DNA from: Dehalococcoidia bacterium
Lineage (GTDB): Bacteria; Chloroflexota; Dehalococcoidia; Lucifugimonadales; Australimonadaceae
Length of the DNA: 64,000 nt
Assembly (NCBI GenBank): GCA_965249185.1
Contig: CBDFLS010000001.1
Span: 445,918 to 509,917, forward strand
Direction: 5' to 3'
The position numbers and the translations under genes were made by a program. Below, piece after piece: positions 41,207 to 63,283 of this stretch; position 1 is the stretch's first letter; the number at the start of each line of letters is the position of its first letter. A model generated the notes under the pieces. It searched no databases. It was not told the DNA's origin and saw only the letters and a list, made by a program, of their open reading frames with translations.

Positions 41207-41285
41207 GGCCCGGTGGTGTAGCCTGGTTTAACACACCTCCCTGTCAAGGAGGAGATCGCCGGTTCGAATCCGGTCCGGGTCGCCA
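41207..41285 (+). tRNA. tRNA-Asp(GUC): tRNA-Asp (anticodon GUC), CCA encoded
   Basis: Hand-folded cloverleaf: acceptor GGCCCGG/CCGGGTC, D stem GTGT/ACAC, anticodon stem CCTCC/GGAGG with loop CTGTCAA, T arm GCCGG-TTCGAAT-CCGGT, G73, CCA. Confidence 0.9.
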
Positions 41286-41309: not shown

Positions 41310-41340
41310 GCCCGCCCAGTGTTGACAGCACCGGACGGGC
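41310..41340. promoter_or_regulatory. 31-bp dyad-symmetric box (P-box copy 1) containing TTGACA
   Basis: GCCCGCCCAGTGTTGACAGCACCGGACGGGC; 24 nt identical to copy 2; lies about 18 nt upstream of an RBS and small-TM gene. Confidence 0.4.
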
Positions 41341-41357: not shown

Positions 41358-41564
41358 GTGAAAGGAACTCCACAGAAGATTATAGCAGCCTTCGGGGTAT
41401 TGCTTCTACTTACGATAGGGACAGCAATCGGTGGGCCGATTCTGGTCAGTATGCAGCCAAGCGAAATGAAGGCGGTCACGACGGCTGGGGTCGTGATAGC
41501 TCCGTTGGCAATTGGTGCGGGCGGAGCGTACGGCTTGTTGAGGAAAATGATGAAGGGAAGGTGA
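41358..41564 (+). CDS. small 2-TM membrane protein; C-terminal half is 'S' repeat copy 1
   Basis: GGAGG then GTG at 41358; KGTPQKIIAAFGVLLLLTIG...MKAVTTAGVVIAPLAIGAGGAYGLLRKMMKGR. Confidence 0.55.
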   Translation: MKGTPQKIIAAFGVLLLLTIGTAIGGPILVSMQPSEMKAVTTAGVVIAPLAIGAGGAYGLLRKMMKGR

Positions 41565-41568
41565 AGCT

Positions 41569-41901
41569 ATGGTACGTGCTCGCTCGCCGGTGATACAACC
41601 GGAAGCAGCCCCATCCCTTCGGGACCGAGTGGCCCGAATCAGGGCTGTGAAAGAGGCGGAGATGGTCTTGGCCATAGAGCAGGAACTCCCACCAAAGGGA
41701 ACCCCAATCACCATGCGGGCAGGCGGTGAGAAATACGGCATCGCTGGCAATACGGTGGCCAATTGGGTGCGCTATGGCTTCGTCAGCGTTCTCACGCCAG
41801 GGAAGGGCCAGGGTTCCAAAACGCACGTGGACGAATACGATATAGCTAGAATTGTGGCGACGCAAGACGTTAGCCAAGGGAAAAGGACTAAGGCCCCATA
41901 A
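41569..41901 (+). CDS. excisionase/MerR-type (HTH_17-like) small DNA-binding protein, paralogue H1
   Basis: 110 aa; coiled N-terminus RVARIRAVKEAEMV, HTH ...EKYGIAGNTVANWVRYGFVSVL, wing PGKGQGSKTHVDEYD. Confidence 0.65.
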   Translation: MVRARSPVIQPEAAPSLRDRVARIRAVKEAEMVLAIEQELPPKGTPITMRAGGEKYGIAGNTVANWVRYGFVSVLTPGKGQGSKTHVDEYDIARIVATQDVSQGKRTKAP

Positions 41902-42024
41902 ATGAAGGCGGTCACGACGGCTGGGGTCGTGATAGCTCCGTTGGCAATTGGTGCGGGCGGAGCGTACGGCTTGTTGAGGACAATGATGAAGGGACTGAAT
42001 AGAGAATTGCCCGCCCAGTGTTGA
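41902..42024 (+). CDS. 'S' repeat copy 2: 40-aa single-TM peptide
   Basis: MKAVTTAGVVIAPLAIGAGGAYGLLRTMMKGLNRELPAQC; its ATG abuts the H1 stop; its 3' end runs into P-box 2. Confidence 0.4.
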   Translation: MKAVTTAGVVIAPLAIGAGGAYGLLRTMMKGLNRELPAQC

Positions 42025-42039
42025 CAGCACCAGGCGGGC
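42009..42039. promoter_or_regulatory. 31-bp dyad-symmetric box (P-box copy 2)
   Basis: GCCCGCCCAGTGTTGACAGCACCAGGCGGGC; outer 7-bp arms are perfect complements, 12/15 dyad matches overall. Confidence 0.4.
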
Positions 42040-42057
42040 GGCACCAGGAGGCCCAAC

Positions 42058-42255
42058 TTGGAAAAGGCCCTGGAAAGAGTAATCATAGCAGGTGCCATCC
42101 TCTTTGCGCTAGCGGCGGCCTTTGTAATCACTATGGTTGTGGGCCTAGCGGATAACCTAACAGGGAAAGCGGTGGCAGGCATTGTATTGGGGAGCATCGG
42201 GGGGGTGCTGGTGGCGGTGTGGATGATAGTCGGAGACCGGTTCAGAGACCGATGA
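42058..42255 (+). CDS. small 2-TM membrane protein
   Basis: AGGAGG then TTG start; EKALERVIIAGAILFALAAAFVITMVVG...IVLGSIGGVLVAVWMIV. Confidence 0.55.
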   Translation: MEKALERVIIAGAILFALAAAFVITMVVGLADNLTGKAVAGIVLGSIGGVLVAVWMIVGDRFRDR

Positions 42256-42310
42256 AAAAGACTCTGGCGGCAATCAGCGTTTGGAATATCCATAACTGGC
42301 GGTAGTAGCT

Positions 42311-42646
42311 ATGGTACGTGCTCGCTCGCCGGTGATACAACCGGAAGCAGCCCCATCCCTTCGGGACCGAGTGGCCCGAATCAGGGCTGTGAAAGAGGCG
42401 GAGATGGTCTTGGCCATAGAGCAGGAACTCCCACCAAAGGGCACGCCGATCACAATGAATCGGGCGGCGATGAAATACGGCATTACACCGCCCACGGTGA
42501 GGAACTGGGTGAGGTACGGGTTCTTAACCGTGCTGAAACCCGGCAAAGGTCAGGGCTCCGCAACCTACGTGGACGAATATGACGTGGCCAAGATCATAGC
42601 CACCCAGGACGTGGGTCCGGGGAAGAGGATAAAGCCGCATAAATGA
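42311..42646 (+). CDS. excisionase/MerR-type HTH protein, paralogue H2
   Basis: First about 130 nt identical to H1. C-terminal half differs (MKYGITPPTVRNWVRYGFLTVLKPGKGQGSATYVDEYD), largely at synonymous sites. Confidence 0.65.
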   Translation: MVRARSPVIQPEAAPSLRDRVARIRAVKEAEMVLAIEQELPPKGTPITMNRAAMKYGITPPTVRNWVRYGFLTVLKPGKGQGSATYVDEYDVAKIIATQDVGPGKRIKPHK

Positions 42647-42741
42647 AGGCGGTCACGACGGCTGGGGTCGTGATAGCTCCGTTGGCAATTGGTGCGGGCG
42701 GAGCGTACGGCTTCTTGAGGACAATGATGAAGGGAAGGTGA
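42643..42741 (+). CDS. 'S' repeat copy 3: 32-aa single-TM peptide
   Basis: MKAVTTAGVVIAPLAIGAGGAYGFLRTMMKGR; ATG overlaps the H2 stop (AAATGA). Confidence 0.4.
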   Translation: MKAVTTAGVVIAPLAIGAGGAYGFLRTMMKGR

Positions 42742-42745
42742 AGCT

Positions 42746-43519
42746 ATGGTACGTGCCCGCGACCGGATGGTAGGATTGAAGGCAGGACCATCGCTACAGG
42801 AGCGCGTGGCCCGAATCAGGGCTGTGAAAGAGGCGGAGATGGTCTTGGCCGTAGAGCAGGAACTCCCACCAAAGGGCACGCCGATCACAATGAATCGGGC
42901 GGCGATGAAATACGGCATTACACCGCCCACGGTGGGGAACTGGGTGAGGTACGGGTTCTTAACCGTGCTGAAACCCGGCAAAGGTCAGGGCTCCGCAACC
43001 TACGTGGACGAATATGACGTGGCCAAGATCATAACCACCCAGGACGTGGGTCAGGGAAAGAGGACTAAGCCGCCAGGTCAATCACAACGAGTTAAAGTTG
43101 TCAATAGGGTACGTGCACGCGACCGGATGGTAGGATTGAAGGCAGGGCCATCGCTGCAGGAGCACGTGGCCCGAATCAGAGCCGTGAACGATGCGGAGGT
43201 GCGGGTCATCATCGGAGCGGAGATAGCGGAGTTCCATCATCACTTGGCCCAAATCATGGCTGTGAAAGAGGCGGAGATGGTCGTGGCCATAGATAAGGCA
43301 CTCCCACCAAAGGGCACGCCGATCACAATGAATCGGGCGGCGATGAAATACGGCATTACACCGCCCACGGTGGGGAACTGGGTGAGGTACGGGTTCTTAA
43401 CCGTGCTGAAACCCGGCAAAGGTCAGGGCTCCGCAACCTACGTGGACGAATACGACGTGGCCAAGATCATAGCCACCCAGGACGTGGGTCCGGGGAAGAG
43501 GATAAAGCCGCCAGTTTAA
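42746..43519 (+). CDS. fused double HTH protein (paralogues H3+H4 read through as one 257-aa ORF)
   Basis: Two complete H units with a variant N-terminus (MVRARDRMVGLKAGPSLQE...). H4 carries a 25-30 aa insertion. No stop between the units. Confidence 0.6.
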   Translation: MVRARDRMVGLKAGPSLQERVARIRAVKEAEMVLAVEQELPPKGTPITMNRAAMKYGITPPTVGNWVRYGFLTVLKPGKGQGSATYVDEYDVAKIITTQDVGQGKRTKPPGQSQRVKVVNRVRARDRMVGLKAGPSLQEHVARIRAVNDAEVRVIIGAEIAEFHHHLAQIMAVKEAEMVVAIDKALPPKGTPITMNRAAMKYGITPPTVGNWVRYGFLTVLKPGKGQGSATYVDEYDVAKIIATQDVGPGKRIKPPV

Positions 43520-43566
43520 CCACCGATGATAATCGATTGACACTTCTTAAAAGTTGTGATTGACTA

Positions 43567-43590
43567 GCGGGCGTCATGAGTGACGCCCGC
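43567..43590 (+). promoter_or_regulatory. perfect 10-bp hairpin enclosing the start codon of the 100-aa TM ORF
   Basis: GCGGGCGTCA-TGAG-TGACGCCCGC; the ATG at 43576 sits at the stem top and loop; identical copy at 46000..46023. Confidence 0.6.
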
Positions 43591-43878
43591 TTTGCTGTGT
43601 ATATCGTTGCGCTCGTGCTGTTGGCGATGGAGCAGCACTACGCGATGAAAGCCCTCCTTAAGTGGGTCCGCCCCAAAAAACGGGCAATCCGTTTCATAGG
43701 GGTCAACATAACGGCCATGCAACTCATCTCATGGTCAGCGTTCGTTTGGCTACTATGGTCAACGACGTTGAGCACCGAAGAGAAGCTGACAGTACTGGCG
43801 ATAGGGACAGCACTGGTCGGTGGCTTAATCATCTTTGTCTGGCGAATTATTCTGCCACATATCAGGGTGAGGCGCTGA
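43576..43878 (+). CDS. 100-aa 3-TM membrane protein, paralogue A
   Basis: MSDARFAVYIVALVLLAMEQHY...; hydrophobic periodicity conserved with paralogue B. Confidence 0.6.
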   Translation: MSDARFAVYIVALVLLAMEQHYAMKALLKWVRPKKRAIRFIGVNITAMQLISWSAFVWLLWSTTLSTEEKLTVLAIGTALVGGLIIFVWRIILPHIRVRR

Positions 43879-43904
43879 TCTCATGAGTGGCGCCCGTTTT
43901 TATT
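43871..43904 (+). terminator. rho-independent terminator-like hairpin plus T tract
   Basis: GGCGC...CTCATGAG...GCGCC followed by CGTTTTTATTAT; identical copy at 46304..46337. Confidence 0.5.
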
Positions 43905-44009
43905 ATCCCGAAGTCCTCCCGCTACGGTGGGCATCGTAACTTCGAACATACTGACCACCCAAACTCCGGACCAGTACGGGTCCAACGCAAGCGGTCGAAG
44001 GGCTGGCGC

Positions 44010-44263
44010 ATGCCGCCGAACACGGTCTATGTGGGAAGGCCCGGCATGTGGGGGAACCCATTCAAGGCAGGTCAGGCTTACCACTTCGGAGGCGGGCTGA
44101 TAGACAACCCCATCCTCGCCTTTAGGCTAACCATGACTAATGAGGCCGCTTGGCCGTACATGAAAAGGTGAGGGCCGCGCTGCGTGGCAAGAACCTGGCC
44201 TGCTGTTGCCCGCTGAACCAGCCGTGCCACGCCGACGTGCTGCTGGAGATCGCAAATGGGTAG
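44010..44263 (+). pseudogene. DUF4326-family protein with an apparent -1 frameshift near 44150
   Basis: MPPNTVYVGRPGMWGNPF... in frame 0. The family C-terminus VRAALRGKNLACCCPLNQPCHADVLLEIANG is in the -1 frame, open from 44144. Confidence 0.6.
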
Positions 44264-45764
44264 TGGCTTCAATTCGAAGGTGCATTGGACCAACGGCACG
44301 TCCACGCTGCTGCACGGCGACGCACGGGATCTCCCGCTGCCAGACGAGAGCGTGGGCTGCGTGGTCACCAGCCCGCCGTACTGGGGGCTGAGGGACTACG
44401 GGCTCCCGCACAGCGTATGGGGTGGCGATGCCGAGCCTGAGCACGAGTGGGAAAACGCCTCTTACCCGCGGCGATCCAACGATAACGGGACCACCGAGAA
44501 GCAACTGAGCAACCAGGGGGCCAACGAGCTTGACGTTCCTGTGCATCACCTCTTCTGCCCCTGCGGTGCATGGCAGGGGTGTCTCGGCTTGGAGCCCACG
44601 CCGGAACTATACGTCCAGCACATGGTTGAGGTGTTCCGCGAGGTGTGGCGGGTGCTGAAGCCCACGGGTACGGTGTGGCTGAACATGGGTGATAGCTACG
44701 CCAATGATGGTAAATGGGGAGGCTCGACCGGAGGGAAGTACGCTGCTGTCCTGCATGGGGAAACGGGGATAGGGCGGCAACGCGCCACTACCGGCCTTAA
44801 GCCAAAAGACCTCGTGGGCATCCCCTGGCGCGTGGCCTTCGCGCTCCAGGCCGACGGCTGGTGGCTCAGGAGCGACATCATCTGGTCGAAGCCCAACCCC
44901 ATGCCAGAGAGCGTGACCGACAGGCCCACCAAGAGCCATGAGTGCGTGTTCTTGCTCACGAAGGGCCAGCGATATTATTACGATGCGGAGGCGGTGAGGG
45001 AACGATGGGCGGATGGGCGTAACGGCCGCGATGGTGGCCGCGCCCCATCTCAGCGCAATCGGGGAGGCAGGGCCGATGGCTTCACAAAGCCAAGCGGTAT
45101 TGACCCATCATCCAACGGAGGTCGCAACCGCCGCTCCGTCTGGGACATCGCCACGCAGCCGATGGACTGGGAGATGTGCGAAGCCTGCGGGTGCATCTAC
45201 TCAGGTGCCCAGTATGGGCGGCTCCCGTTCGTTGAGTACCGCGTCTTGAACGTTGAGACGGAGGAGTGGGGGATCAAGGCGGCGAAGCAGTGCCGCCGGT
45301 GCAAGGGCTACGATGCCTGGATGAGCCACTTCGCCACGTTTCCTGAGAAGCTGGTCGAGCCGTGTGTCCTGGCCGGCAGCAGCGAGCGGGGCGTGTGCTC
45401 CGAGTGCGGGAAGCCTTGGGAACGATTGGTAGAGAAGAACCGCCATTTTGAGAGTGGGTCTGGACGTGCTGGTCACATGCCTGTCGGAAAGAATGGAGCA
45501 GGACTCCAAGGTGGTGGGGAAACATTGGACGTGCGGCGTGGCCCCGTAGTAAGCACCATCACCACCGGCTGGGCCGCCACCTGCGCCTGCGGGGCCCCTA
45601 CGGTGCCCGCTACGGTGCTGGACCCGTTCGCCGGGTCAGGGACAACGCTGCTGGTGGCGCAGCGGCTCGGCAAGCGGGCCGTGGGTGTGGAGCTGAGCGA
45701 GAAGTACCTGGCGCTGGCGCAAAAGAGGCTGGAGGCCGTATCGCTGCCGATGGTGCTGGCGTGA
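44256..45764 (+). CDS. beta-class N6-adenine/N4-cytosine DNA methyltransferase with internal Cys-rich insert
   Basis: Motif IV VVTSPPYWGLRDYG near the N-terminus, motif I DPFAGSGTT near the C-terminus; CEACGC...CRRCKG...CSECG cluster. No cognate nuclease seen. Confidence 0.88.
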   Translation: MGSGFNSKVHWTNGTSTLLHGDARDLPLPDESVGCVVTSPPYWGLRDYGLPHSVWGGDAEPEHEWENASYPRRSNDNGTTEKQLSNQGANELDVPVHHLFCPCGAWQGCLGLEPTPELYVQHMVEVFREVWRVLKPTGTVWLNMGDSYANDGKWGGSTGGKYAAVLHGETGIGRQRATTGLKPKDLVGIPWRVAFALQADGWWLRSDIIWSKPNPMPESVTDRPTKSHECVFLLTKGQRYYYDAEAVRERWADGRNGRDGGRAPSQRNRGGRADGFTKPSGIDPSSNGGRNRRSVWDIATQPMDWEMCEACGCIYSGAQYGRLPFVEYRVLNVETEEWGIKAAKQCRRCKGYDAWMSHFATFPEKLVEPCVLAGSSERGVCSECGKPWERLVEKNRHFESGSGRAGHMPVGKNGAGLQGGGETLDVRRGPVVSTITTGWAATCACGAPTVPATVLDPFAGSGTTLLVAQRLGKRAVGVELSEKYLALAQKRLEAVSLPMVLA

Positions 45765-45952
45765 ACGTGCTCAGTCTCTGCTCAGGCATCGGTGGCAATA
45801 CGGTGGCCAATTGGGTGCGCTATGGCTTCGTCAGCGTTCTCACGCCAGGGAAGGGCCAGGGTTCCAAAACGCATGTGGACGAATATGACGTGGCCAAGAG
45901 CATAGCCACCCAGGACGTGGGTCCGGGGAAGAGGATAAAGCCGCCAGTTTAA
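45761..45952 (+). pseudogene. chimeric ORF: first 12 codons of a C5-cytosine methyltransferase fused to an H-type HTH 3' part
   Basis: (M)NVLSLCSGIGG (motif I), then NTVANWVRYGFVSVLTPGKGQGSKTHVDEYD, nt-identical to H1, then VAKSIATQDVGPGKRIKPPV, H4-like. Confidence 0.7.
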
Positions 45953-46394
45953 CCACCGATGATAATCGATTGACACTTCTTAAAAGTTGTGATTGACTAG
46001 CGGGCGTCATGAGTGACGCCCGCTTTGCTGTGTTTATCGTTGCGATCGTGCTGTTGACGATGGCGCACCACTACGCGATGAAAGCCATCTATAAGTGGGT
46101 CCGGCCCCAAGAACGGGCAATCCGTTTCATAGGGGTCAACTTTACGGCCACGCAACTCATCTCATGGTCAGCGTTCGTTTGGCTAATATGGTCAACGACG
46201 TTGAGCACCGAAGAGAAGCTGACATTGCTGGCGATAGTGACAGCACTGGTCGGTGGCGTAATCATCTTTCTCTGGCGAATGATTCTGGCACATATCAGGG
46301 TGAGGCGCTGATCTCATGAGTGGCGCCCGTTTTTATTATCCCAAAGTCCTCCCGCTACGGTGGGCATCGTGACTTCGAGCATACTGACCACCCA
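45875..46394 (+). repeat. 520-bp direct repeat, copy B
   Basis: See copy A; offset is exactly 2,433 bp at both ends. Confidence 0.85.
46009..46311 (+). CDS. 100-aa 3-TM membrane protein, paralogue B
   Basis: Same length as paralogue A; 18 aa substitutions and 1 synonymous codon difference (manual alignment). Confidence 0.6.
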   Translation: MSDARFAVFIVAIVLLTMAHHYAMKAIYKWVRPQERAIRFIGVNFTATQLISWSAFVWLIWSTTLSTEEKLTLLAIVTALVGGVIIFLWRMILAHIRVRR

Positions 46395-46671
46395 GGCAAC
46401 GGCGCCGGATGTGTATTGGGTAACGGTCTATCTCCACAGCCCTCATCCTTGGAGCACCGCCCCAGCCCAAAAGGTGGAGTTTCGGTGTATCGGGACCCCA
46501 GACAGCAGGGAAAAATGGCACCTGGACTTGGCGGAGCCAACGCTCCCATTGAAACGGATACCCAAAGGGCAGAGCGAGTACCTGATCAATGCGCTGGCAA
46601 CTCAACTAGCACCCCTGGTCTTTCCGCGAAGGCTGCGGAGATTCAACACGGGGATCGTGAGCGTGGAGTAA
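46360..46671 (+). CDS. hypothetical protein
   Basis: 103-aa ORF; start uncertain because it begins inside the repeat; no family recognised. Confidence 0.4.
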   Translation: MGIVTSSILTTQATAPDVYWVTVYLHSPHPWSTAPAQKVEFRCIGTPDSREKWHLDLAEPTLPLKRIPKGQSEYLINALATQLAPLVFPRRLRRFNTGIVSVE

Positions 46672-46674
46672 GCC

Positions 46675-47469
46675 ATGCCCAGGCGAATGACCACCGCTGC
46701 GCGGAAAGTCATTTACCCGGTCCTGGTCGCTAGGGACGGTGAGCGGTGCCGACTATGCGGGCGACGGCCAGAGCAAACGGCAGAGGAATTTCTAGAGATT
46801 GACCACGTAGACGGAGACTCGGAACACAACGTACTCGACAACTATCGTTTGCTCTGTAAGCCCTGCAACGTCGGAGAGGAAAACAGGCTGCGGGCGGAAA
46901 TAGTGCAGAAATCGCGCGCCGGGCGCAGCGTTATGTCAAGTAGCAACGGCAAGCTGCCTAGCTACGAAAATGGCCGTGCTATTCACCGAGTGCCCGGCGG
47001 CAGAGAGAGAGAGAAAAAAAACGGGAACACTCCCGCACTCCCTCATATCGACTCTATCCATGACCACCTTGATTACGGTCGTGGTTCACTGGAAATGCAA
47101 GCTAATGAACACTTTGAAGTCCCTTGGGTGACTTGGTTAGTGCGACGACTACTGACTGAGGGGCCAGTGAATGCCAAGGATGCCGTAAACGCTGGCGCTG
47201 AACACGTCGGTTGCAATCCGTCCACAGCAAAGAAATACCTAGACAAGAAAACGTCCAGTGAGGGGATGTTCGAGCTGGTCAAAGACCCGATCACACGCCG
47301 GTCAATGGTGCATCTGCGAAGCAACGTATTTGGCCCCCGGTCAACGGACGGACCAGCGGACCACGCGGCCCCGGTCAACGGACGGACCAGTAGGAGCATA
47401 GTCAGCGCGGGCGCTAAGAGACAGGCGCGGCGCGAGCGCAAGAACGGGCATGGCAAGCCACATGGGTAG
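46675..47469 (+). CDS. HNH endonuclease-domain protein with C-terminal wHTH-like region
   Basis: CRLCGRRP...EIDHVDGDSEHNVLDNYRLLCKPCN (HNH/zinc-finger pattern). Confidence 0.75.
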   Translation: MPRRMTTAARKVIYPVLVARDGERCRLCGRRPEQTAEEFLEIDHVDGDSEHNVLDNYRLLCKPCNVGEENRLRAEIVQKSRAGRSVMSSSNGKLPSYENGRAIHRVPGGREREKKNGNTPALPHIDSIHDHLDYGRGSLEMQANEHFEVPWVTWLVRRLLTEGPVNAKDAVNAGAEHVGCNPSTAKKYLDKKTSSEGMFELVKDPITRRSMVHLRSNVFGPRSTDGPADHAAPVNGRTSRSIVSAGAKRQARRERKNGHGKPHG

Positions 47470-47477
47470 CTTCATTA

Positions 47478-47684
47478 TGGGGAAGCAGACCAACCCTGCT
47501 CTTTTGCCCAAAATGCGGCGGGCAGCACATAGACAAGGGGATATGGGCCACGACTCGCCTCCACCGAACGCACCTTTGCGAGCATTGTGGAACCGAATGG
47601 AGGCCGTACTCCGTTCATACGATTGGCGTAGATGTCGCTCCCACGCCACGGGAGGCGCGGCGTCCTGAGGAGATGACCGGATGA
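47478..47684 (+). CDS. small zinc-ribbon protein, translationally coupled to the C5-MTase stub; start codon unclear
   Basis: ...LLFCPKCGGQHIDKGIWATTRLHRTHLCEHCGTEWRPYSVH...; stop overlaps the next ATG (ATGA at 47681). No canonical start in the open frame. Confidence 0.45.
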   Translation, partial: WGSRPTLLFCPKCGGQHIDKGIWATTRLHRTHLCEHCGTEWRPYSVHTIGVDVAPTPREARRPEEMTG

Positions 47685-47812
47685 GTAGGCAATTCCTGGT
47701 GGCCGATCTCTTCTGCGGCGCGGGCGGCAGCAGCACCGGCGCGGAGCGTGCTGTGCGGGAACTCGACGCCGAGTCGGTGCCCTCGGTGCGGGTGGTTCCA
47801 TGCGTCGGGTGA
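47681..47812 (+). pseudogene. C5-cytosine DNA methyltransferase, N-terminal fragment (motif I only)
   Basis: MSRQFLVADLFCGAGGSSTGAERAVRELDA, then unrelated residues and a stop after 43 codons. Confidence 0.7.
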
Positions 47813-47860
47813 GTGCCCATCCAGGCAGGAGGATAGCTGACTCACTAAGGGGGTGAGCTG

Positions 47861-48028
47861 GTGAAGTGCCGAATGTGCGGTAAGTACATGATGGACGAGG
47901 AGGAGGCTATGGAGCTGCGATCAGAGATTGAGGCGTCGAGCGCCTCTCTGGAGGGGCGATTCTCGGACCTGAACAACCTGAATCTCTGCGATCCCTGCCT
48001 CCGCCGCCAGCTCCAGGAGCGGCGCTAA
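47861..48028 (+). CDS. 55-aa CxxC...CxxC micro-protein lying between the two C5-MTase fragments
   Basis: AAGGGGG RBS then GTG; VKCRMCGKYMMDEEEAMELRSEIE...NLCDPCLRRQLQERR; its stop overlaps the next ATG (TAATG). Confidence 0.5.
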   Translation: MKCRMCGKYMMDEEEAMELRSEIEASSASLEGRFSDLNNLNLCDPCLRRQLQERR

Positions 48029-48654
48029 TGGCAGCCTGGAAGCGATGCTTGTTGGTGGAGAACGTGCGCGAGTTCGTGGAATGGGGACCGCTGACGGCCG
48101 ATGGCCGTCCTGACCACTCCAAGCGAGGCATCTACTTTGAAGCATGGATCCGGGCCATGTGGGAGCTGGGCTACCAGGCCGAATGGCGCTATCTGAACGC
48201 CGCGGACTATGGGGATGCCACCACGCGGATCCGCTTCTTTCTCCAGGCCCGCAAGGACGGCCTGCCCATCCGGTGGCCGGAGCCCACGCACGCGGCGCCA
48301 AGTGCCGGTGGGCTCTTCGATGGCCTCCTCCCTTGGCGGCCCGCCCGGGAGGTTATCGACTGGGAGAACAGAGGCCGGTCGCTGCTGGATGACCCTCGCT
48401 ATCAGAAGCGGCCGTTGAGCGATAAGACCCGCATGCGTATCGCCCGTGGGCTTAAGCGGTTCGATGGTCCACTGGCCCCGCTGTACATCGGACTGCTGGA
48501 CCTGGAGCCCACGGAGGGACCAGGCGGGCCCGGTCCGCAGCCCTTCGTCTGGTGGGCCTCGTTCTGCGTGATCCTGGGAACTGCCGGGGTGATCTGGTCG
48601 TACCGGGTCACATGGGACGCAGTACGGAACATTACCCGCGTGGGAGGCAATTGA
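48028..48654 (+). pseudogene. C5-cytosine DNA methyltransferase, central fragment (motifs VI-VIII); catalytic PC motif and C-terminal motifs absent
   Basis: LLVENVREFVEWGP (ENV), LGYQAEWRYLNAADYGDATTRIRFFLQARK (QxRxR-like); the tail degenerates. Confidence 0.65.
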
Positions 48655-50889: not shown

Positions 50890-51363
50890 ATGGGTGAAAG
50901 CTCCGACACCCCTTTGAAGCTCCAATTCGACCGCAGAGTCCGCCTGGATTTTCGTGGCGCTACCATCACCTCGGACGCCGGACTCCTGGCATGCCGCGAG
51001 CTTGATGCCGCTCTGGGGCTCACAGAGACAGCCAACGATTATATCCATGAAAGCCGCACCGGCCGCAATGTGCAACACCCGCTGTTGCCCTTGCTCAGAC
51101 AATCGGTGTATAGCCGTCTCGCTGGCTACGAGGACACCAACGACGCTGAACGGCTTGCCCAAGACCCGGCTATGCGTGTCATCGTCGGGTGGCAAGGTAC
51201 TGATAAGCAGGCAGCCAGCACCAATACTATGAGCCGATTTGAGACTGAGGTGTTAACCGAAGAGGAAAACCTGGATGGGCTTGCGCGCCTGAATGTTGAG
51301 TGGGTGGCTAGGGCCATGGCCCAGACATCTCACCAGCGAGTTATCCTAGACATGGACAGCTCT
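50890..51363 (+). pseudogene. IS1380-family transposase, N-terminal about 157 codons only
   Basis: LKLQFDRRVRLDFRGATITSDAGLLACRELD...LLRQSVYSRLAGYEDTNDAERL...VILDMDSS, then homology stops abruptly. Confidence 0.7.
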
Positions 51364-51383
51364 ACACAGGGCTGGCTCTTGGC

Positions 51384-52235
51384 GTGGCCAGCGTATCGGT
51401 GGCCGCCATCCTCATCCGCCTGGCCGATGCCGAGCCTTTGACCGTGGCCGCCTACCGAATGGGCCTCGCCGCATTACTGGTGTCCGGCTTCGCCATGGCG
51501 AGGGCACGGAGCCAGTTCCGGGGACTCTCCTGGGGGGATGGGCGATGGCTGCTGGTGTCGGGCGGTTTGCTGGCAATCCATTTTGCGGGATTTATCGGCT
51601 CCCTGGAGCTCACCTCCGTGGCCAACTCGGTCTTCCTCAGCACCACGGCGCCCCTCTTCGTGGCCATCGGCTCCCATTGGGGCCTGCGGGAGCGAGTGGG
51701 GCCCGTAGTAGCGGGGGCGGTGCTAATAAGTCTGGCCGGCGGCGCGGTACTGGCCGTGGGCGATTGGCGGGATGGTGCCGACTCGCTGCGTGGCGATGGA
51801 CTGGCCCTGCTAGGGGGGCTGGCGGCCGCGGGCTATCTGCTGGTAGGACGCAGGGTACGCCGCCGGTTGCCGCTGCTGCCCTACATCAGCGTGGTCTACA
51901 CCGTTGCAGCGGTACTGCTCCTGGCGTCCGCCTTGGCTGCGGGGTCGCCACTCTCCGGCTATCCCTCCTCCAGCTACGTTTGGATGGTGCTGGTGGCCCT
52001 GATCCCTCAGGTGACCGGCCACTCGGCCATAAACTGGGCGCTGGCCCATCTGGACGCTACCATCGTTTCGCTCTCCATCCGCGCCGAGCCGGTCATCGCC
52101 ACCGCCCTGGCCGTGCCGGTCCTTGGCGAAACACCACGCTGGACCGTCGTCCCTGGTGGTCTGCTCATCCTGGCCGGCGTCTATCTGGCCGTGCGCGCCA
52201 GCGCGCCGTCCCGGGGCCGGTCTGGCGCGGTATAA
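51384..52235 (+). CDS. EamA/DMT-family transporter, N-terminus apparently clipped
   Basis: 10-TM EamA-like repeats. In-frame upstream codons (GLALGV) continue TM1 back to the IS junction at about 51363. GTG 51384 is only a possible start. Confidence 0.75.
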   Translation: MASVSVAAILIRLADAEPLTVAAYRMGLAALLVSGFAMARARSQFRGLSWGDGRWLLVSGGLLAIHFAGFIGSLELTSVANSVFLSTTAPLFVAIGSHWGLRERVGPVVAGAVLISLAGGAVLAVGDWRDGADSLRGDGLALLGGLAAAGYLLVGRRVRRRLPLLPYISVVYTVAAVLLLASALAAGSPLSGYPSSSYVWMVLVALIPQVTGHSAINWALAHLDATIVSLSIRAEPVIATALAVPVLGETPRWTVVPGGLLILAGVYLAVRASAPSRGRSGAV

Positions 52236-54234: not shown

Positions 54235-55317
54235 CTAAGCGGGAACGGGCGTTGCTTCCGTTGTGGGTTCTGCAAAGGTCTGCCCACCCTTCTTTACGAT
54301 GCGATAATTGTGCTGCTCCAAGACTCCCGCAAGCTCGCCGGCCGTCATGCCCGGCTCGAATAGCTGCGCCTCGGTCAAGGGCCGGCGGATGTTGAACGGC
54401 GTGGTCCTGCCGATCCACTGGGCCAGCACGTCATCCGCGTTCTGGGGCACGCTGGCCGTTGGGATCACAATGCCCGCCTCGACGCCTGAATAGTCATCGT
54501 CGAAGCGGCGTATGAGCTTGCCGGTGTGCCCCTTGACCGCCCACTCGTTGATCACCTGGGCGAACCGCTGCTCCTGGTCCTGGTACGTGGGCGGGATGTA
54601 CTCGTATCGGTCGTAGAGCCCGAAAACAGTGTTGACGTTCAGCAACTCCAGTGTCCAGTCCGCCTCCCAGAAGGGCGGTGGCCACGTCTTGCGCCAGAAG
54701 TTGCCGGTGACCTGCCCCCAGTAATCGTGAACGTAGAGCATGCACGAGCGGTTGTCCGGCTGGAGGTCGCACTCTATGAAATAGTCCACCTGGATGAGCA
54801 GTTGATAGTCCACCACCTGGGGAAACTGCGTCGTGAGCAGCACGTCCAGGCGTTGCTTCCGTAGCTGCGTAAGGTACTGGGAGAGCCCGACGTTATAGCG
54901 GCTCATGGACCGGCGGGACGAGGCGAACGACTGAATCTCGTCGATGCACATCAACCCATCCTTCACCTGCCCCATGTACCGGGGGTCCGTCACGGCGTCG
55001 AGTATGAAGGGGTCGGCGAAGTCGGCGATCTCGTTCCAGTAATTCGTGTAGATGCTCAGGCGCTTTTGGGATTTGGCGTATCGCGCCTTCATGATCTTGG
55101 AGAGCACCGTCAGCGTGAGTGTTTTGCCACGCCCGCGCCTGGCGAACATGAGCCCCACCGTTGGCGATCCGCCGCCGCCCTGCGCCCCCAGTTCCTCGGG
55201 GCGCCAGAGCGCCTTCACTGGATCGTCGGTGCCGGTTGCAAGGCTGGGCGGCCTGCTCGTATGGAACCGGGACATCATCGCGGCGCCCGTTGGCATCCGG
55301 CTCAGGGCCGTGCTCAT
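54235..55317 (-). CDS. Zot/pI-like P-loop morphogenesis ATPase
   Basis: Walker A ARRGRGKT, Walker B LMCIDEIQ, then LRKQRLDVLLTTQ, resembling the hRHxGxDhhhhTQ block of Zot-family ATPases. Confidence 0.6.
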   Translation of the reverse strand: MSTALSRMPTGAAMMSRFHTSRPPSLATGTDDPVKALWRPEELGAQGGGGSPTVGLMFARRGRGKTLTLTVLSKIMKARYAKSQKRLSIYTNYWNEIADFADPFILDAVTDPRYMGQVKDGLMCIDEIQSFASSRRSMSRYNVGLSQYLTQLRKQRLDVLLTTQFPQVVDYQLLIQVDYFIECDLQPDNRSCMLYVHDYWGQVTGNFWRKTWPPPFWEADWTLELLNVNTVFGLYDRYEYIPPTYQDQEQRFAQVINEWAVKGHTGKLIRRFDDDYSGVEAGIVIPTASVPQNADDVLAQWIGRTTPFNIRRPLTEAQLFEPGMTAGELAGVLEQHNYRIVKKGGQTFAEPTTEATPVPA

Positions 55318-60082: not shown

Positions 60083-61167
60083 CAACCCTATCTTCCCGCT
60101 TGCCACTCCGCCTGCGCCTTGGGAGCACGGCCACGATGCGCCTGCTCTCACGCATTGTGCTGGGCGGCGCGATCAGCACTTCCTTTTTCGTTCCGCACTA
60201 CGCCCATTGGATGTTCGGCCTCTCCATCGGACTGCTGGCGCTCTCCATCGCCATCGGCGAGCCAAGGATGCCGCGCCGTGCCCCTCTGGTAGCCGTGGGA
60301 GTGATTACGGTGAGCATGGTGGCGGCGGTGCCCCTGAGCATCATCAACGGCGGCTTCTGGCCGGGCACAACGATCCTGGCCTTCTGGATGGTGCTCATGG
60401 CGGGTCTGTTCGCCGGGCCCGTCTCCTCCAGCATCCTGCCGATGCTCGTTTCTGCCTCGCTGGTCCAGGCGGCGGCCACAATCGCCCAGGGGCTCATCCA
60501 CCACGGGCAGGGGCTCCGTCAGTACGGGTTGATGAGCAACCCGAACCCCGCCGCCGGGCTCATGGCGGTGGGCGCCATCTACCTATTGACCACGAAGCGT
60601 TACCGCCCACTGGCCATCCCGCTACTGGTGGCGCTTCCTCTCAGCGGGTCCCGATGGGGCGTGGCGGTGGCCAGCGTGGTCCTGGTGGCGATGCTCGTGG
60701 CTCGCGCGGTTCCATGGAAGGCGTGGGTGGCCATCTTGGGGTGCAGCGTAGTACTCACCGTCCCATTCTGGGCGGACCTCGGCCACTCGTTACTGGGCAG
60801 GGGCACCGGCAGCGCCGAGCTGGGGGCTATCGCGGCGGTGGAGGCAGAGGCATTCACCCGCCTGTCCTCTAACGTCGCGCCCCAGCCGCTCCCCCGGGGC
60901 ATCTCGTATCAGTACGGCGCCCATTCAGCGCCCGTTCGGGTCGGCATTGAGGGCGGGATACTCTCGGCGCTGGCCTGGCTTTTCCTCTCCGGGTATGCCA
61001 TCTGGCGCGGGCATGGGGCCGTGCGCTGGCTCGCAATCGCGCTTTTGGGGCTCTCAATGCTCGACTACTACACCTGGCAGCCCTATCAGCTCTCGATGGT
61101 CTGGTGGCTCGTCATAGGCATCTCAGCGCGTAAGAATCGGAACATGGAGGCCCGTCATGGATCGTAG
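60079..61167 (+). CDS. O-antigen-ligase/Wzy_C-domain membrane protein (PglL/PilO-like candidate)
   Basis: GLMSNPNPAAGLMAVGAIYLL, LPLSGSRWGVAVASVVLV, AHSAPVRVGIEGGILSALAWLFL resemble Wzy_C blocks; about 10 TM segments. Confidence 0.55.
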   Translation: MTTLSSRLPLRLRLGSTATMRLLSRIVLGGAISTSFFVPHYAHWMFGLSIGLLALSIAIGEPRMPRRAPLVAVGVITVSMVAAVPLSIINGGFWPGTTILAFWMVLMAGLFAGPVSSSILPMLVSASLVQAAATIAQGLIHHGQGLRQYGLMSNPNPAAGLMAVGAIYLLTTKRYRPLAIPLLVALPLSGSRWGVAVASVVLVAMLVARAVPWKAWVAILGCSVVLTVPFWADLGHSLLGRGTGSAELGAIAAVEAEAFTRLSSNVAPQPLPRGISYQYGAHSAPVRVGIEGGILSALAWLFLSGYAIWRGHGAVRWLAIALLGLSMLDYYTWQPYQLSMVWWLVIGISARKNRNMEARHGS

Positions 61168-63283
61168 GGTTCTTTTCGTCCCGGCTATCATCGCGTTCAT
61201 CGCCATTGTGGCGCTCGCCCTGGCTCCCACGGTGCTCCAGAATGCCGCCAATACAGGCGGTGGTGGTGGCACCGGGTCCGTCTGGGCGGTCTGCTATCAG
61301 GAGCTCCGCAACCTCGTGGACCTCGTGCCGGTCATCTATTACGCGATGGTGGCGATGATCCTGGTTGCCGCCGTCGGCAGCGTGTGGCTCATCAACCGTC
61401 AGAACATGGGCGGCGGCGGGCTCGGCGGCGCGCAGGCGGGCTTCGCCCGCTGGCCCATCCTGGTGTTCGTGGCCATGTTCGCCATTGTCGCTGCGCTCAC
61501 CGTCCCGTCCACCGTGGGCTGGCAGAAGACGGTCAAGGCAGCGGTCACCACCTGCGTGCTCAGGGACGGCTCGCTGGCCATGACGGGCAACCTCCAGATG
61601 GGCGACTTCAATATCACCGGGGCTGATAGCATCGTGGCCACCAGCGGCACGGCGCTGTCTGTCCCCACCACCGGAACGACGTTCGCCACAACGGCCGGCG
61701 TCCAGACGCTCTCCAGTAAGACGCTCGTGGCCCCGGCCCTCGGCACGCCCGCATCTGGCGTGCTCACCAACGCCACCGACCTGCCGATCAGCACGGGGGT
61801 CTCGGGGCTGGCCGCCGGCGTGGCGGCCGCCCTTGGAACGCCCAGCAGCGCCAACCTGGCAACGGCGGTCACGGACGAGACTGGTTCGGGCCTGATCGTA
61901 TTCGCCACCAGCCCAACCCTCATTACTCCCGCCCTCGGCACACCGGCCTCGGGGGTGCTGACCAACGCCACCGACCTGCCGATCAGCACGGGAGTATCGG
62001 GGCTGTCCGCTGGGGTGGCGGCCGCCCTGGGGACACCCAGCAGCGCCAATCTCGCCACAGCGGTCACAGACGAGACTGGTAGTGGGCTGCTGGTGTTCGC
62101 AACCAGCCCCACCCTCACATCGCCGACTATCGCCACGTCCCCGACGGCGGCGGGAGCGACATGGGCCGACCTCGGGATCGTCTCATCGGTGGACATCAAC
62201 GGCGGGACCATAGACGGCGCCACGATAGGCGGGACCAGCGCGGGCGCCGGCACGTTCACCTCATTGAATCTCACGGGTGGCAACATATCCGGCGTCGGCA
62301 GCATCACATTGGATTCCATCATTGCCGACGCGACGGAGATCATCATAGATTCGGCTCAGGTTGGGACCAACATAGGGTCTGGCCCATCTGCAGGCGTCTA
62401 CTCCACCTTCCGTTACTCTAAAACAGCTTCAGCGGGTGGGGTTAGTGGACTGCGCTTGGGCGGAGTGCTCACGGCCGCTGCCAACGGCGACTCCATCCGG
62501 TTCATAGAAATGAGCGCGCTCGCTTCCACGGTGGCTTCCGGCACATTCACAGGGCTGTCGGGGGGCGGCATCTTCATGGCGCCGGGGAACTTCACCAAGA
62601 CTGGCTCTGGAACCATCGACACGTTCAGCGGCATCTACATCGCCAACGCGCCCACCATCGGAACCACCAACTGGGCCATGTACATAGACGCGGGCAACGT
62701 TCGCATCGATGGCGAGATCGGAGCATCGGGCACCCGCGTCTCGAAGATATGGACGGTGGACCAGGACACCACCAACGCCGAGGTCGTCTCCTCGTCGGAG
62801 CTGTTCAAGACGAACATCGTCCCCTACACGGGGAGCGCGACTGCCATCCTGCGCGCAGCGGAGGTCATCAAGTTCAAGCACGTTACCGACCTGGACCCGA
62901 GCGGGCGGCTGAAGCTGGGACTGGTCGCCGAGAGCCTTCAGACCGAGCCCACCATGACGCCCATCAAGAGCTACCCCGTAGGGTGGACTACAAAGACGGT
63001 ACGAAACGAGAAGGGGCAGAACGTCCAGGTGCAGGAGCCCACCTCATTCCAGGCTGCACCAGGAATCGACACCGGGGCCCTCTCTGCCGTTCTGGTCAAG
63101 GGATTCCAAGAGATAGAAGCCCGCGTGACCGACCTGGAGAAGACGAAGGGGACCCTCTCGAAGCGCCCACCATGCAACAACGGGAACAGGGGCAAGACCT
63201 TCACCGTGTTGACCCTGACGGGCGACCTTTTCCAGGTGTGTTTGAGGAGCGGGTCAGGAACCTACGATTGGGTCACGAAGTAG
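61157..63283 (+). CDS. membrane-anchored fibre protein with tail-fibre repeats and a C-terminal S74 intramolecular-chaperone-like domain
   Basis: 3 N-terminal TM helices; 2 x 65-aa repeat (LGTPASGVLTNATDLPISTGVSG...); SSSELFKTNIVPYTGSATAILRAAEVIKFKH...GLVAESLQ. Confidence 0.6.
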   Translation: MDRRVLFVPAIIAFIAIVALALAPTVLQNAANTGGGGGTGSVWAVCYQELRNLVDLVPVIYYAMVAMILVAAVGSVWLINRQNMGGGGLGGAQAGFARWPILVFVAMFAIVAALTVPSTVGWQKTVKAAVTTCVLRDGSLAMTGNLQMGDFNITGADSIVATSGTALSVPTTGTTFATTAGVQTLSSKTLVAPALGTPASGVLTNATDLPISTGVSGLAAGVAAALGTPSSANLATAVTDETGSGLIVFATSPTLITPALGTPASGVLTNATDLPISTGVSGLSAGVAAALGTPSSANLATAVTDETGSGLLVFATSPTLTSPTIATSPTAAGATWADLGIVSSVDINGGTIDGATIGGTSAGAGTFTSLNLTGGNISGVGSITLDSIIADATEIIIDSAQVGTNIGSGPSAGVYSTFRYSKTASAGGVSGLRLGGVLTAAANGDSIRFIEMSALASTVASGTFTGLSGGGIFMAPGNFTKTGSGTIDTFSGIYIANAPTIGTTNWAMYIDAGNVRIDGEIGASGTRVSKIWTVDQDTTNAEVVSSSELFKTNIVPYTGSATAILRAAEVIKFKHVTDLDPSGRLKLGLVAESLQTEPTMTPIKSYPVGWTTKTVRNEKGQNVQVQEPTSFQAAPGIDTGALSAVLVKGFQEIEARVTDLEKTKGTLSKRPPCNNGNRGKTFTVLTLTGDLFQVCLRSGSGTYDWVTK
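61733..62122 (+). repeat. 2 x 195-bp tandem in-frame repeat inside the fibre gene
   Basis: Units 61733..61927 and 61928..62122 encode PALGTPASGVLTNATDLPISTGVSGL(A/S)AGVAAALGTPSSANLATAVTDETGSGL(I/L)VFATSPTL. Confidence 0.85.

Follow-up and report, generated by a model that had tools for sequence, protein, structure and literature searches.

In a 64,000-nucleotide stretch of the genome of a Dehalococcoidia bacterium (hereafter the window; GenBank assembly GCA_965249185.1, contig CBDFLS010000001.1, positions 445,918 to 509,917), two paralogous genes for a small predicted membrane protein, here named TM100, differ from each other almost exclusively by amino-acid replacements, and the replacements occupy one face of each predicted helix. 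TM100-1 (43576..43878) and TM100-2 (46009..46311), both on the + strand like tRNA-Asp, the repeats with the segment between them, the HTH gene upstream of each copy, and the DUF119-like and HNH genes described below, are probably two functional copies of a lineage-restricted inner-membrane protein with three transmembrane helices. They are carried by a mobile element integrated beside tRNA-Asp, in its variable cargo slot. Our tentatively favoured explanation of their divergence is selection on one helix surface.

The two open reading frames (ORFs), of 303 nucleotides apiece, align codon for codon with zero indels, and their 100-residue products are 82% identical. The 22 nucleotide differences (5 transitions and 17 transversions) are spread over 19 codons, 18 of which are non-synonymous; the one synonymous difference is CGC/CGG at codon 32. 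Realignment thereby reproduced every count given in an earlier note on this DNA (differences, transversions, codons, replacements and the lack of indels), together with its 3 changes in the 83 nucleotides 3' of the gene (43879-43961), which are all transitions (3/3); the 57 base pairs that it gave as identical upstream are indeed identical, but the tract actually extends over 108 nucleotides before the ATG, or 133 nucleotides (43468-43600) when the first 25 nucleotides of the ORF are included. The divergent zone (43601-43855) lies inside the ORF, between near-identical flanks, and the differences are spread evenly (clustering, as multi-nucleotide mutations would produce, is not significant, P=0.29; largest gap 39 nucleotides).

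TM100 has the properties of a gene that encodes a helical membrane protein. A six-frame check finds this frame alone open in both copies; its GC content at codon positions 1/2/3 (0.51/0.42/0.65) follows the order GC3>GC1>GC2, like that of neighbouring genes; and among the alternative frames and strands none turns the differences synonymous and none matches any family. AlphaFold2, supplied with the two-sequence alignment, predicts helices at residues 4-30, 35-62 and 67-97 (mean predicted local distance difference test score, pLDDT, 73.7). From the charge distribution alone (KWVRPKKRAIR and HIRVRR against TTLSTEEK) we infer, applying the positive-inside rule, a three-pass topology with the N-terminus out and the C-terminus in, the first two segments being inside and the third outside. 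When the variable residues are projected onto the helices, they sit on one face of each, with a resultant-vector peak that is sharp at 100 degrees per residue (P=0.0005-0.0009 with three choices of helix limits; P=0.017 once maximised over all angles from 60 to 180 degrees); a check for such one-sidedness had been proposed in the earlier note. Permuting the labels within residue class leaves the pattern in place (P=0.0005), and the bulky hydrophobic residues (LIVFM) are distributed all around the helices rather than on one side. The 18 replacements are conservative, with a mean BLOSUM62 score of +0.44 versus -0.46 for random non-synonymous changes (P=0.011). Together, the helix-face pattern and the conservative replacements indicate that the ORF encodes a folded helical protein, as modelled, and that its differences have passed a filter at the protein level.

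The excess of replacements is apparent by several measures. By the method of Nei and Gojobori, 2.5 differences are assigned to 73.5 synonymous sites and 19.5 to 226.5 non-synonymous sites, for a ratio of non-synonymous to synonymous divergence (dN/dS, or omega) of 2.63 (Fisher P=0.06), and random placement of the same 22 changes leaves one synonymous codon or fewer with P=0.03-0.04. A pairwise maximum-likelihood codon model, custom-written for this pair, estimates omega at 2.8-3.0 with a transition/transversion parameter (kappa) of about 0.6. Constraining omega to 0.75 or less gives 2dlnL of 4.3-4.6, and constraining it to 0.5 or less gives 2dlnL >8 and is rejected; ordinary purifying selection on the pair is excluded because of this rejection. 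Neutral divergence is about 3.5%, a figure on which the downstream sequence (3/83) and the synonymous sites (2.5/73.5) agree, whereas non-synonymous divergence is about 9%. Non-synonymous sites compared with synonymous sites and downstream sequence pooled give Fisher P=0.03-0.04, and the ORF compared with both flanks gives P=0.003. If about half of the non-synonymous sites are free to change, as the face pattern would have it, the probability of 2-3 synonymous changes among 22 is 0.002-0.009. The 3' end of the helix-turn-helix (HTH) gene that precedes TM100 in the same repeat serves as a control: 17/26 of its differences are at codon position 3 and its omega is 0.18, which is ordinary purifying selection.

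Selection for divergence is the most economical reading because purifying selection is excluded, the replacements appear filtered, and they are confined to one face. Since the duplication, the copies would have accumulated replacements all compatible with a membrane helix, each on one face of its helix, while selection drove or kept them apart on a surface that contacts an intramembrane partner. The partner might be the protein's own oligomer, in which case divergence would insulate the paralogues from each other, or else a target protein. The diversifying selection proposed in the earlier note is partly supported, by the excess of replacements and the face pattern; the formal test to which it looked puts dN/dS at 2.6-3.0, not significantly above 1 (one-sided P 0.03-0.06 and two-sided P 0.10-0.12 across the tests).

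Alternative explanations for the divergence

Several considerations weigh against selection for divergence. When omega is fixed at 1, the likelihood ratio test yields a 2dlnL of 2.5-2.7 (two-sided P 0.10-0.12), so that omega>1 is not significant and is not established from a single pair. All of the selection tests rest on that one pair, with no outgroup, and the pair was chosen for looking extreme, which inflates apparent significance. The flanks that serve as a neutral yardstick are partly constrained, their promoter-like region and hairpin being conserved in two related elements, L001 and L002 (see below), and the fraction of half-free sites was estimated from the same TM100 data to which it was then applied. 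The ATG is inside a strong hairpin without a Shine-Dalgarno sequence, and translation from the ORF is only predicted. The variable face may simply be the lipid-facing, least constrained surface of each helix, as lipid-facing residues are the least conserved residues of membrane proteins (PMC1540425). Bacterial dN/dS is inflated at short divergence, rising towards 1 (PMC3136474, PMC11379459), and the youngest pairs of HTH paralogues in the array upstream of TM100 have ratios of non-synonymous to synonymous differences (Nd:Sd) of 7:1 and 10:3. Finally, because the locus includes a frameshifted DUF4326 gene and a broken C5 cytosine methyltransferase gene, relaxed selection is a realistic background here.

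The main rival explanation is that constraint was relaxed and chance did the rest: redundant copies would have drifted, hydrophobic swaps would have been tolerated on a lipid-facing surface, and the shortage of synonymous changes, made striking by the way in which the finding was picked, would be a sampling fluctuation. We consider this possible but somewhat unlikely. The failure to reject omega=1, the pseudogenes around the locus and the young HTH pairs all favour it, but the face-specific constraint (P about 0.0005) shrinks the target for neutral non-synonymous change, and it is with half of the sites free that 2-3 or fewer synonymous changes of 22 become so improbable. Moreover, time dependence lifts dN/dS to 1 and not to about 3, and it is the flanks and synonymous sites together that agree on the lower of the two divergences. 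Comparison with young duplicates and recently diverged bacteria (PMC3136474, PMC11379459) points both ways: like them, the TM100 genes are recent paralogues with few synonymous changes, and the neighbouring HTH duplicates too have a non-synonymous excess; unlike them, the TM100 genes have a dN/dS of about 3 rather than one approaching 1, and their changes are face-specific and conservative.

A variant of the favoured explanation supposes an older duplication followed by concerted evolution, in which gene conversion erases neutral differences while selection keeps the replacements. The region is demonstrably mosaic, with a switch of partner at 45885/45886, and 133 identical nucleotides abut the divergent zone; but the even spread of differences, with gaps of 39 nucleotides or less, would demand very short conversion tracts or selection at many sites at once, and functional constraint also accounts for the identity upstream, the region being conserved in L001 and L002. 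We regard this variant as improbable. An artefact of assembly or consensus, in which the assembler mixed alleles of different strains or set them in tandem, or in which the differences are sequencing errors, is highly unlikely. Both TM100 proteins are known only from one 512-kb contig, and the frameshifted or fragmented genes around them could be errors; yet both copies have unique junctions of their own to the left and right, with 2.4 kb of unique sequence between the two, random errors would neither follow helical periodicity nor be conservative, and merged strain alleles would still leave the same non-synonymous excess to be explained.

It is most unlikely that the ORF is not a gene but a frame left open by chance in GC-rich DNA, or else some non-coding element, in either case evolving neutrally. 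To be sure, TM100 has no homologue anywhere in the databases searched, lacks a Shine-Dalgarno sequence, and begins with an ATG in a hairpin that resembles a terminator of the HTH gene, and a frame would escape a stop after 22 random changes with a probability of 0.44. Such an element would not account for differences that show alpha-helical periodicity, for conservative replacements, for codon-position GC content that looks coding, or for three confidently modelled helices, and no other frame makes the differences synonymous. Nor does any Rfam family reach threshold, the only match to a small RNA (sRNA) being to SymR at 25 bits against a gathering score of 61.

Targeted hypermutation, by a diversity-generating retroelement (DGR) or other programmed mutagenesis, is barely credible even though the divergent zone coincides with the ORF interior between near-identical flanks, since synonymous sites would be struck too, adenine is not favoured among the changed bases (copy 1: A7/C6/G5/T4; copy 2: T6/G6/A5/C5), no third TM100 copy that could serve as template occurs in the window, no window ORF of at least 200 residues has a Y.DD motif in a crude screen, and no reverse transcriptase is matched in Pfam scans of the island ORFs. 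On these grounds the targeted diversification that was entertained in the earlier note is not supported. The locus resembles DGR variable regions in having two near-identical repeats with differences concentrated in a coding segment, but the TM100 changes run throughout a membrane protein, whereas those of DGRs are in a C-terminal ligand-binding fold; TM100 was rejected as a DGR target for want of a reverse transcriptase, of template adenine mismatches and of a template copy in the window.

Origin of TM100 in the cargo slot

Each TM100 gene is embedded in one copy of a direct repeat (43367..43961 and 45800..46394), the two copies of which align by blastn self-comparison over 595 nucleotides with 51 mismatches and no gaps (91.4% identity). 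Copy 1 comprises the 3' end of an HTH gene, the intergenic region, TM100, the remnant of a zinc-ribbon ORF, and the first 35 nucleotides of a DUF119 gene. The left 86 nucleotides of copy 2 instead resemble another HTH gene, HTH-1 (41737-41837, 98%); at 45885/45886 the closest partner switches from HTH-1 (98%) to copy 1 (100% over 148 nucleotides), and this change of partner shows that the repeats have recombined. The intergenic region (43520..43575), which contains TTGACA and two GATTGAC motifs, is unchanged in copy 2 (45953-46008). TTGACA and a hairpin followed by a run of T are present at the TM100 locus; neither a sigma-70-type promoter nor a terminator was called there.

Comparison with L001 and L002, two sister elements of metagenomic origin, suggests how TM100 arose. 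These elements are integrated after tRNA-Gly, encode HTH proteins 78% and 62% identical to that of the window, and share with the window element a backbone of HTH gene, slot, DUF119 gene and HNH gene; their slot, however, holds a zinc-ribbon-like ORF (CxxC...CxxC; sub-threshold Pfam matches) instead of TM100. A 194-nucleotide stretch of the window (43400-43593) matches L001 at about 80% identity, and the intergenic region after the HTH gene, the GC hairpin and the T-run are conserved in all three elements (hairpin and T-run at 43556-43604 of the window, 10371-10418 of L001 and 10407-10454 of L002). In the window, the start codon of TM100 lies in the stem and loop of this 11-bp hairpin (43566..43591; identical at 45999-46024 of copy 2), which has a predicted energy of -21.5 kcal/mol (z=-2.98). 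The core GGGCG/CGCCC and the T-run are conserved in L001 and L002, and there is no covariation to test, the core sequence being invariant across the three elements. In L001 the ATG of the hairpin loop starts the zinc-ribbon ORF (M-G-A-M-S-A-R-F-H-F-R-P), so that in both the window and L001 the downstream cargo ORF has its start codon within the hairpin. Whatever cargo fills the slot, the hairpin and T-run may provide a common means of attenuation or translational control.

The 20-mer TCATGAGTGRCGCCCGYTTT (43574..43593), which encodes M-S-D-A-R-F at the start of TM100, occurs again at 43881-43900, just past the stop codon, and likewise twice in copy 2 (46007-46026 and 46314-46333), making four matches in the window against 0.03 expected. 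From the second occurrence onward (43881..43961, and also 46314-46394) lies the decayed 5' end of a zinc-ribbon ORF followed by the first DUF119 codons; this is the sequence that was used above as a neutral yardstick. TM100 appears to be a lineage-specific insertion of about 290 nucleotides, with its start and first six codons taken over from the cargo gene already in the slot, because the slot of L001 and L002 holds a zinc-ribbon ORF, begun in L001 at the same ATG, and because the 20-mer brackets TM100 and the remnant follows it. The body of the ORF would thus lie between two copies of a 20-nucleotide hairpin/T-run sequence, borrowing the hairpin-embedded ATG. Both copies of the repeat share this derived arrangement, including the remnant, and the duplication would therefore be later than the insertion. 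The duplicated segment would have been at least 509 nucleotides long, and its copies now flank a methyltransferase module; the duplication could have come about by unequal or Campbell-type recombination, or by the accretion in tandem of two sister elements and subsequent deletions.

A search for further sister elements with the HTH, DUF119 and HNH proteins yielded only L001 and L002, plus a Planctomycetota contig (L003) that was uninformative. Outside the window, a 2.13-Mb NCBI/ENA contig, probably that of a sister genome, encodes HTH paralogues (P0005 and P0007) that are the same as those of the window or close to them; the protein search yielded no TM100 homologue from this contig.

The island beside tRNA-Asp

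The element is part of an island that begins directly after tRNA-Asp (41207..41285) and has a GC content of 55-63%, versus 65-69% outside. In order, the island consists of an array of HTH_17 genes, TM100-1, DUF4326, an N4/N6 DNA methyltransferase, a truncated HTH gene, TM100-2, a DUF119-like ORF and an HNH gene, and further to the right, fragments of a C5 methyltransferase, a phage-type phosphoadenosine phosphosulfate (PAPS) reductase and a resolvase. The tandem array (41464-43519) pairs a mini-ORF for a 32-residue single helix (MKAVTTAGVVIAPLAIGAGGAYGLLRKMMKGR; 41469-41564, 41902-42024 and 42643-42741) with an HTH_17/excisionase-like gene that it abuts or overlaps. A fusion of the third HTH copy with the fourth makes up a single 257-residue ORF 5' of TM100-1 (42746..43519), a double HTH_17 (excisionase/MerR-like) gene by Pfam and PHROG matches. 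A 31-nucleotide hairpin with a 12-bp GC-rich stem occurs twice, at 41310-41340, just past tRNA-Asp, and 700 nucleotides downstream at 42009-42039; it scanned as terminator-like on the minus strand, and could be either an att-related or a terminator element. Within the window, no attR copy matching the tRNA end was detected.

The unique segment between the repeats (43962..45764) contains a frameshifted DUF4326 gene and the N4/N6 DNA methyltransferase gene (44256-45764). DUF4326 (about 43989-44262) is split near 44165-44172; once joined, the translation covers the entire Pfam model (1-82 of 82) with 77 bits, whereas the first frame alone scores 35 bits, and the frameshift would signify either a pseudogene or a sequencing error. 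The methyltransferase module is joined at the microhomology GGCATCG to the truncated HTH gene 5' of TM100-2 (45761..45952). Here the ORF that follows the methyltransferase (45761-45800) begins MNVLSLCSGIGG, which we take to resemble motif I of C5 cytosine methyltransferases, and passes directly into the 3' part of the HTH gene at GGCATCG; the join has the look of a junction left by a deletion. The backbone genes to the right of the slot encode the DUF119-like protein (46360-46671) and, by Pfam match, the HNH-domain protein (46675-47469), both of which have homologous ORFs in L001 and L002.

Beyond these, the C5 cytosine methyltransferase is in pieces (47681-48654), with an N-terminal piece at 47681-47812 and a Pfam DNA_methylase match on 48028-48654, which suggests decay of the element. 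A truncated DDE transposase (50890-51441; DDE_Tnp_1_4, profile positions 3-148 of 435) has an EamA transporter gene after it, and the right end of the island is probably close by. A P-loop protein encoded at 54235-55317 on the minus strand is a borderline match to Zot/phage morphogenesis protein I (Pfam 20.1 bits versus a cut-off of 20.3; PHROG E 6e-5 to 7e-3), and is possibly what remains of a filamentous-phage-like module. At 61732-62117, within a 708-residue ORF (61157-63283) that has no Pfam or PHROG match, about 190 nucleotides are duplicated in tandem (85% identical), which gives the encoded protein two repeats.

Relatives of TM100 and likeness to known systems

In a word-indexed search of 5.8 billion proteins TM100 matched only itself and its paralogue, and in a search of 1.84 billion representatives with a hidden Markov model the only matches beyond the two copies were weak ones in long proteins with multiple repetitive stretches. 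No further homologue emerged from back-translated scans of genome, viral and metagenome contigs or from tblastn against phages and plasmids; no family match from Pfam, PHROGs, PADLOC or NCBIfam; no match from a sequence search of the PDB; and nothing with E<=0.001 from a Foldseek comparison of the TM100 model with the PDB and BFVD. The collection of metagenomic homologues that the earlier note had proposed came to the two copies themselves. By these searches TM100 is a new protein family with two known members, both in one genome. The roles in superinfection exclusion, immunity or reception that the earlier note put forward are conjectural, no family, defence or phage library having matched the protein.

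TM100 belongs to a known kind, the accessory membrane genes that evolve fast in the cargo slots of mobile elements. Small accessory ('moron') membrane proteins encoded by prophages and integrative elements include superinfection-exclusion proteins such as P22 SieA and SieB, T4 Imm and lactococcal Sie2009. As a small membrane protein in the variable accessory slot of an integrated element, TM100 answers to the description of a moron. It is likewise small and polytopic and lies beside a regulatory/excisionase-like gene, sister elements hold a different ORF in the slot, and a hairpin with a T-run follows TM100; unlike morons, it has no PHROG, PADLOC, Pfam or NCBIfam match and no called sigma-70-like promoter. 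By position and architecture TM100 resembles moron or exclusion-type membrane proteins, and an exclusion function is putative.

Three other kinds of small membrane protein were considered, and TM100 falls short of each. Immunity proteins of pore-forming colicins and other bacteriocins are small inner-membrane proteins of 3-4 helices that achieve specificity through intramembrane helix recognition, and have been reported to be under diversifying selection. TM100 is like them in its predicted three helices, its variation on defined helix surfaces and its excess of dN over dS, but is located in an integrated element with methyltransferases rather than in a bacteriocin operon; no toxin-like ORF is in or beside the repeats, and there is no sequence or fold match. 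Class I holins have about 100 residues and three transmembrane domains in an N-out/C-in orientation. TM100 matches them in size and predicted helix number and would do so in its charge-inferred topology, and the location of its start codon in an RNA hairpin is reminiscent of the translational control of lambda S, but its charged C-terminal tail (HIRVRR) is very short, no endolysin or lysis cassette accompanies it (the neighbours being HTH, DUF4326, methyltransferase, DUF119 and HNH genes), and no holin family is matched in Pfam, PHROG or NCBIfam. Type I toxins, with which it shares a start codon sequestered in a hairpin, are under about 60 residues and paired with a cis-antisense sRNA, whereas TM100 has 100 residues and the SymR match is below threshold.

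A fuller account would make TM100 a very young gene, the body of which was spliced to the hairpin start of another cargo gene, and the copies of which then diverged by positive selection on an intramembrane specificity surface, letting related elements or oligomeric complexes coexist without cross-reaction; taken as a whole, this account is doubtful. At present TM100 remains a candidate, if a well-characterised one, and is not a demonstrated case. Were selection on one helix face to be confirmed, the TM100 pair would be a compact natural case of specificity encoded purely in the surfaces of transmembrane helices, and a traceable case of a mobile-element slot acquiring, and then diversifying, a new membrane gene.

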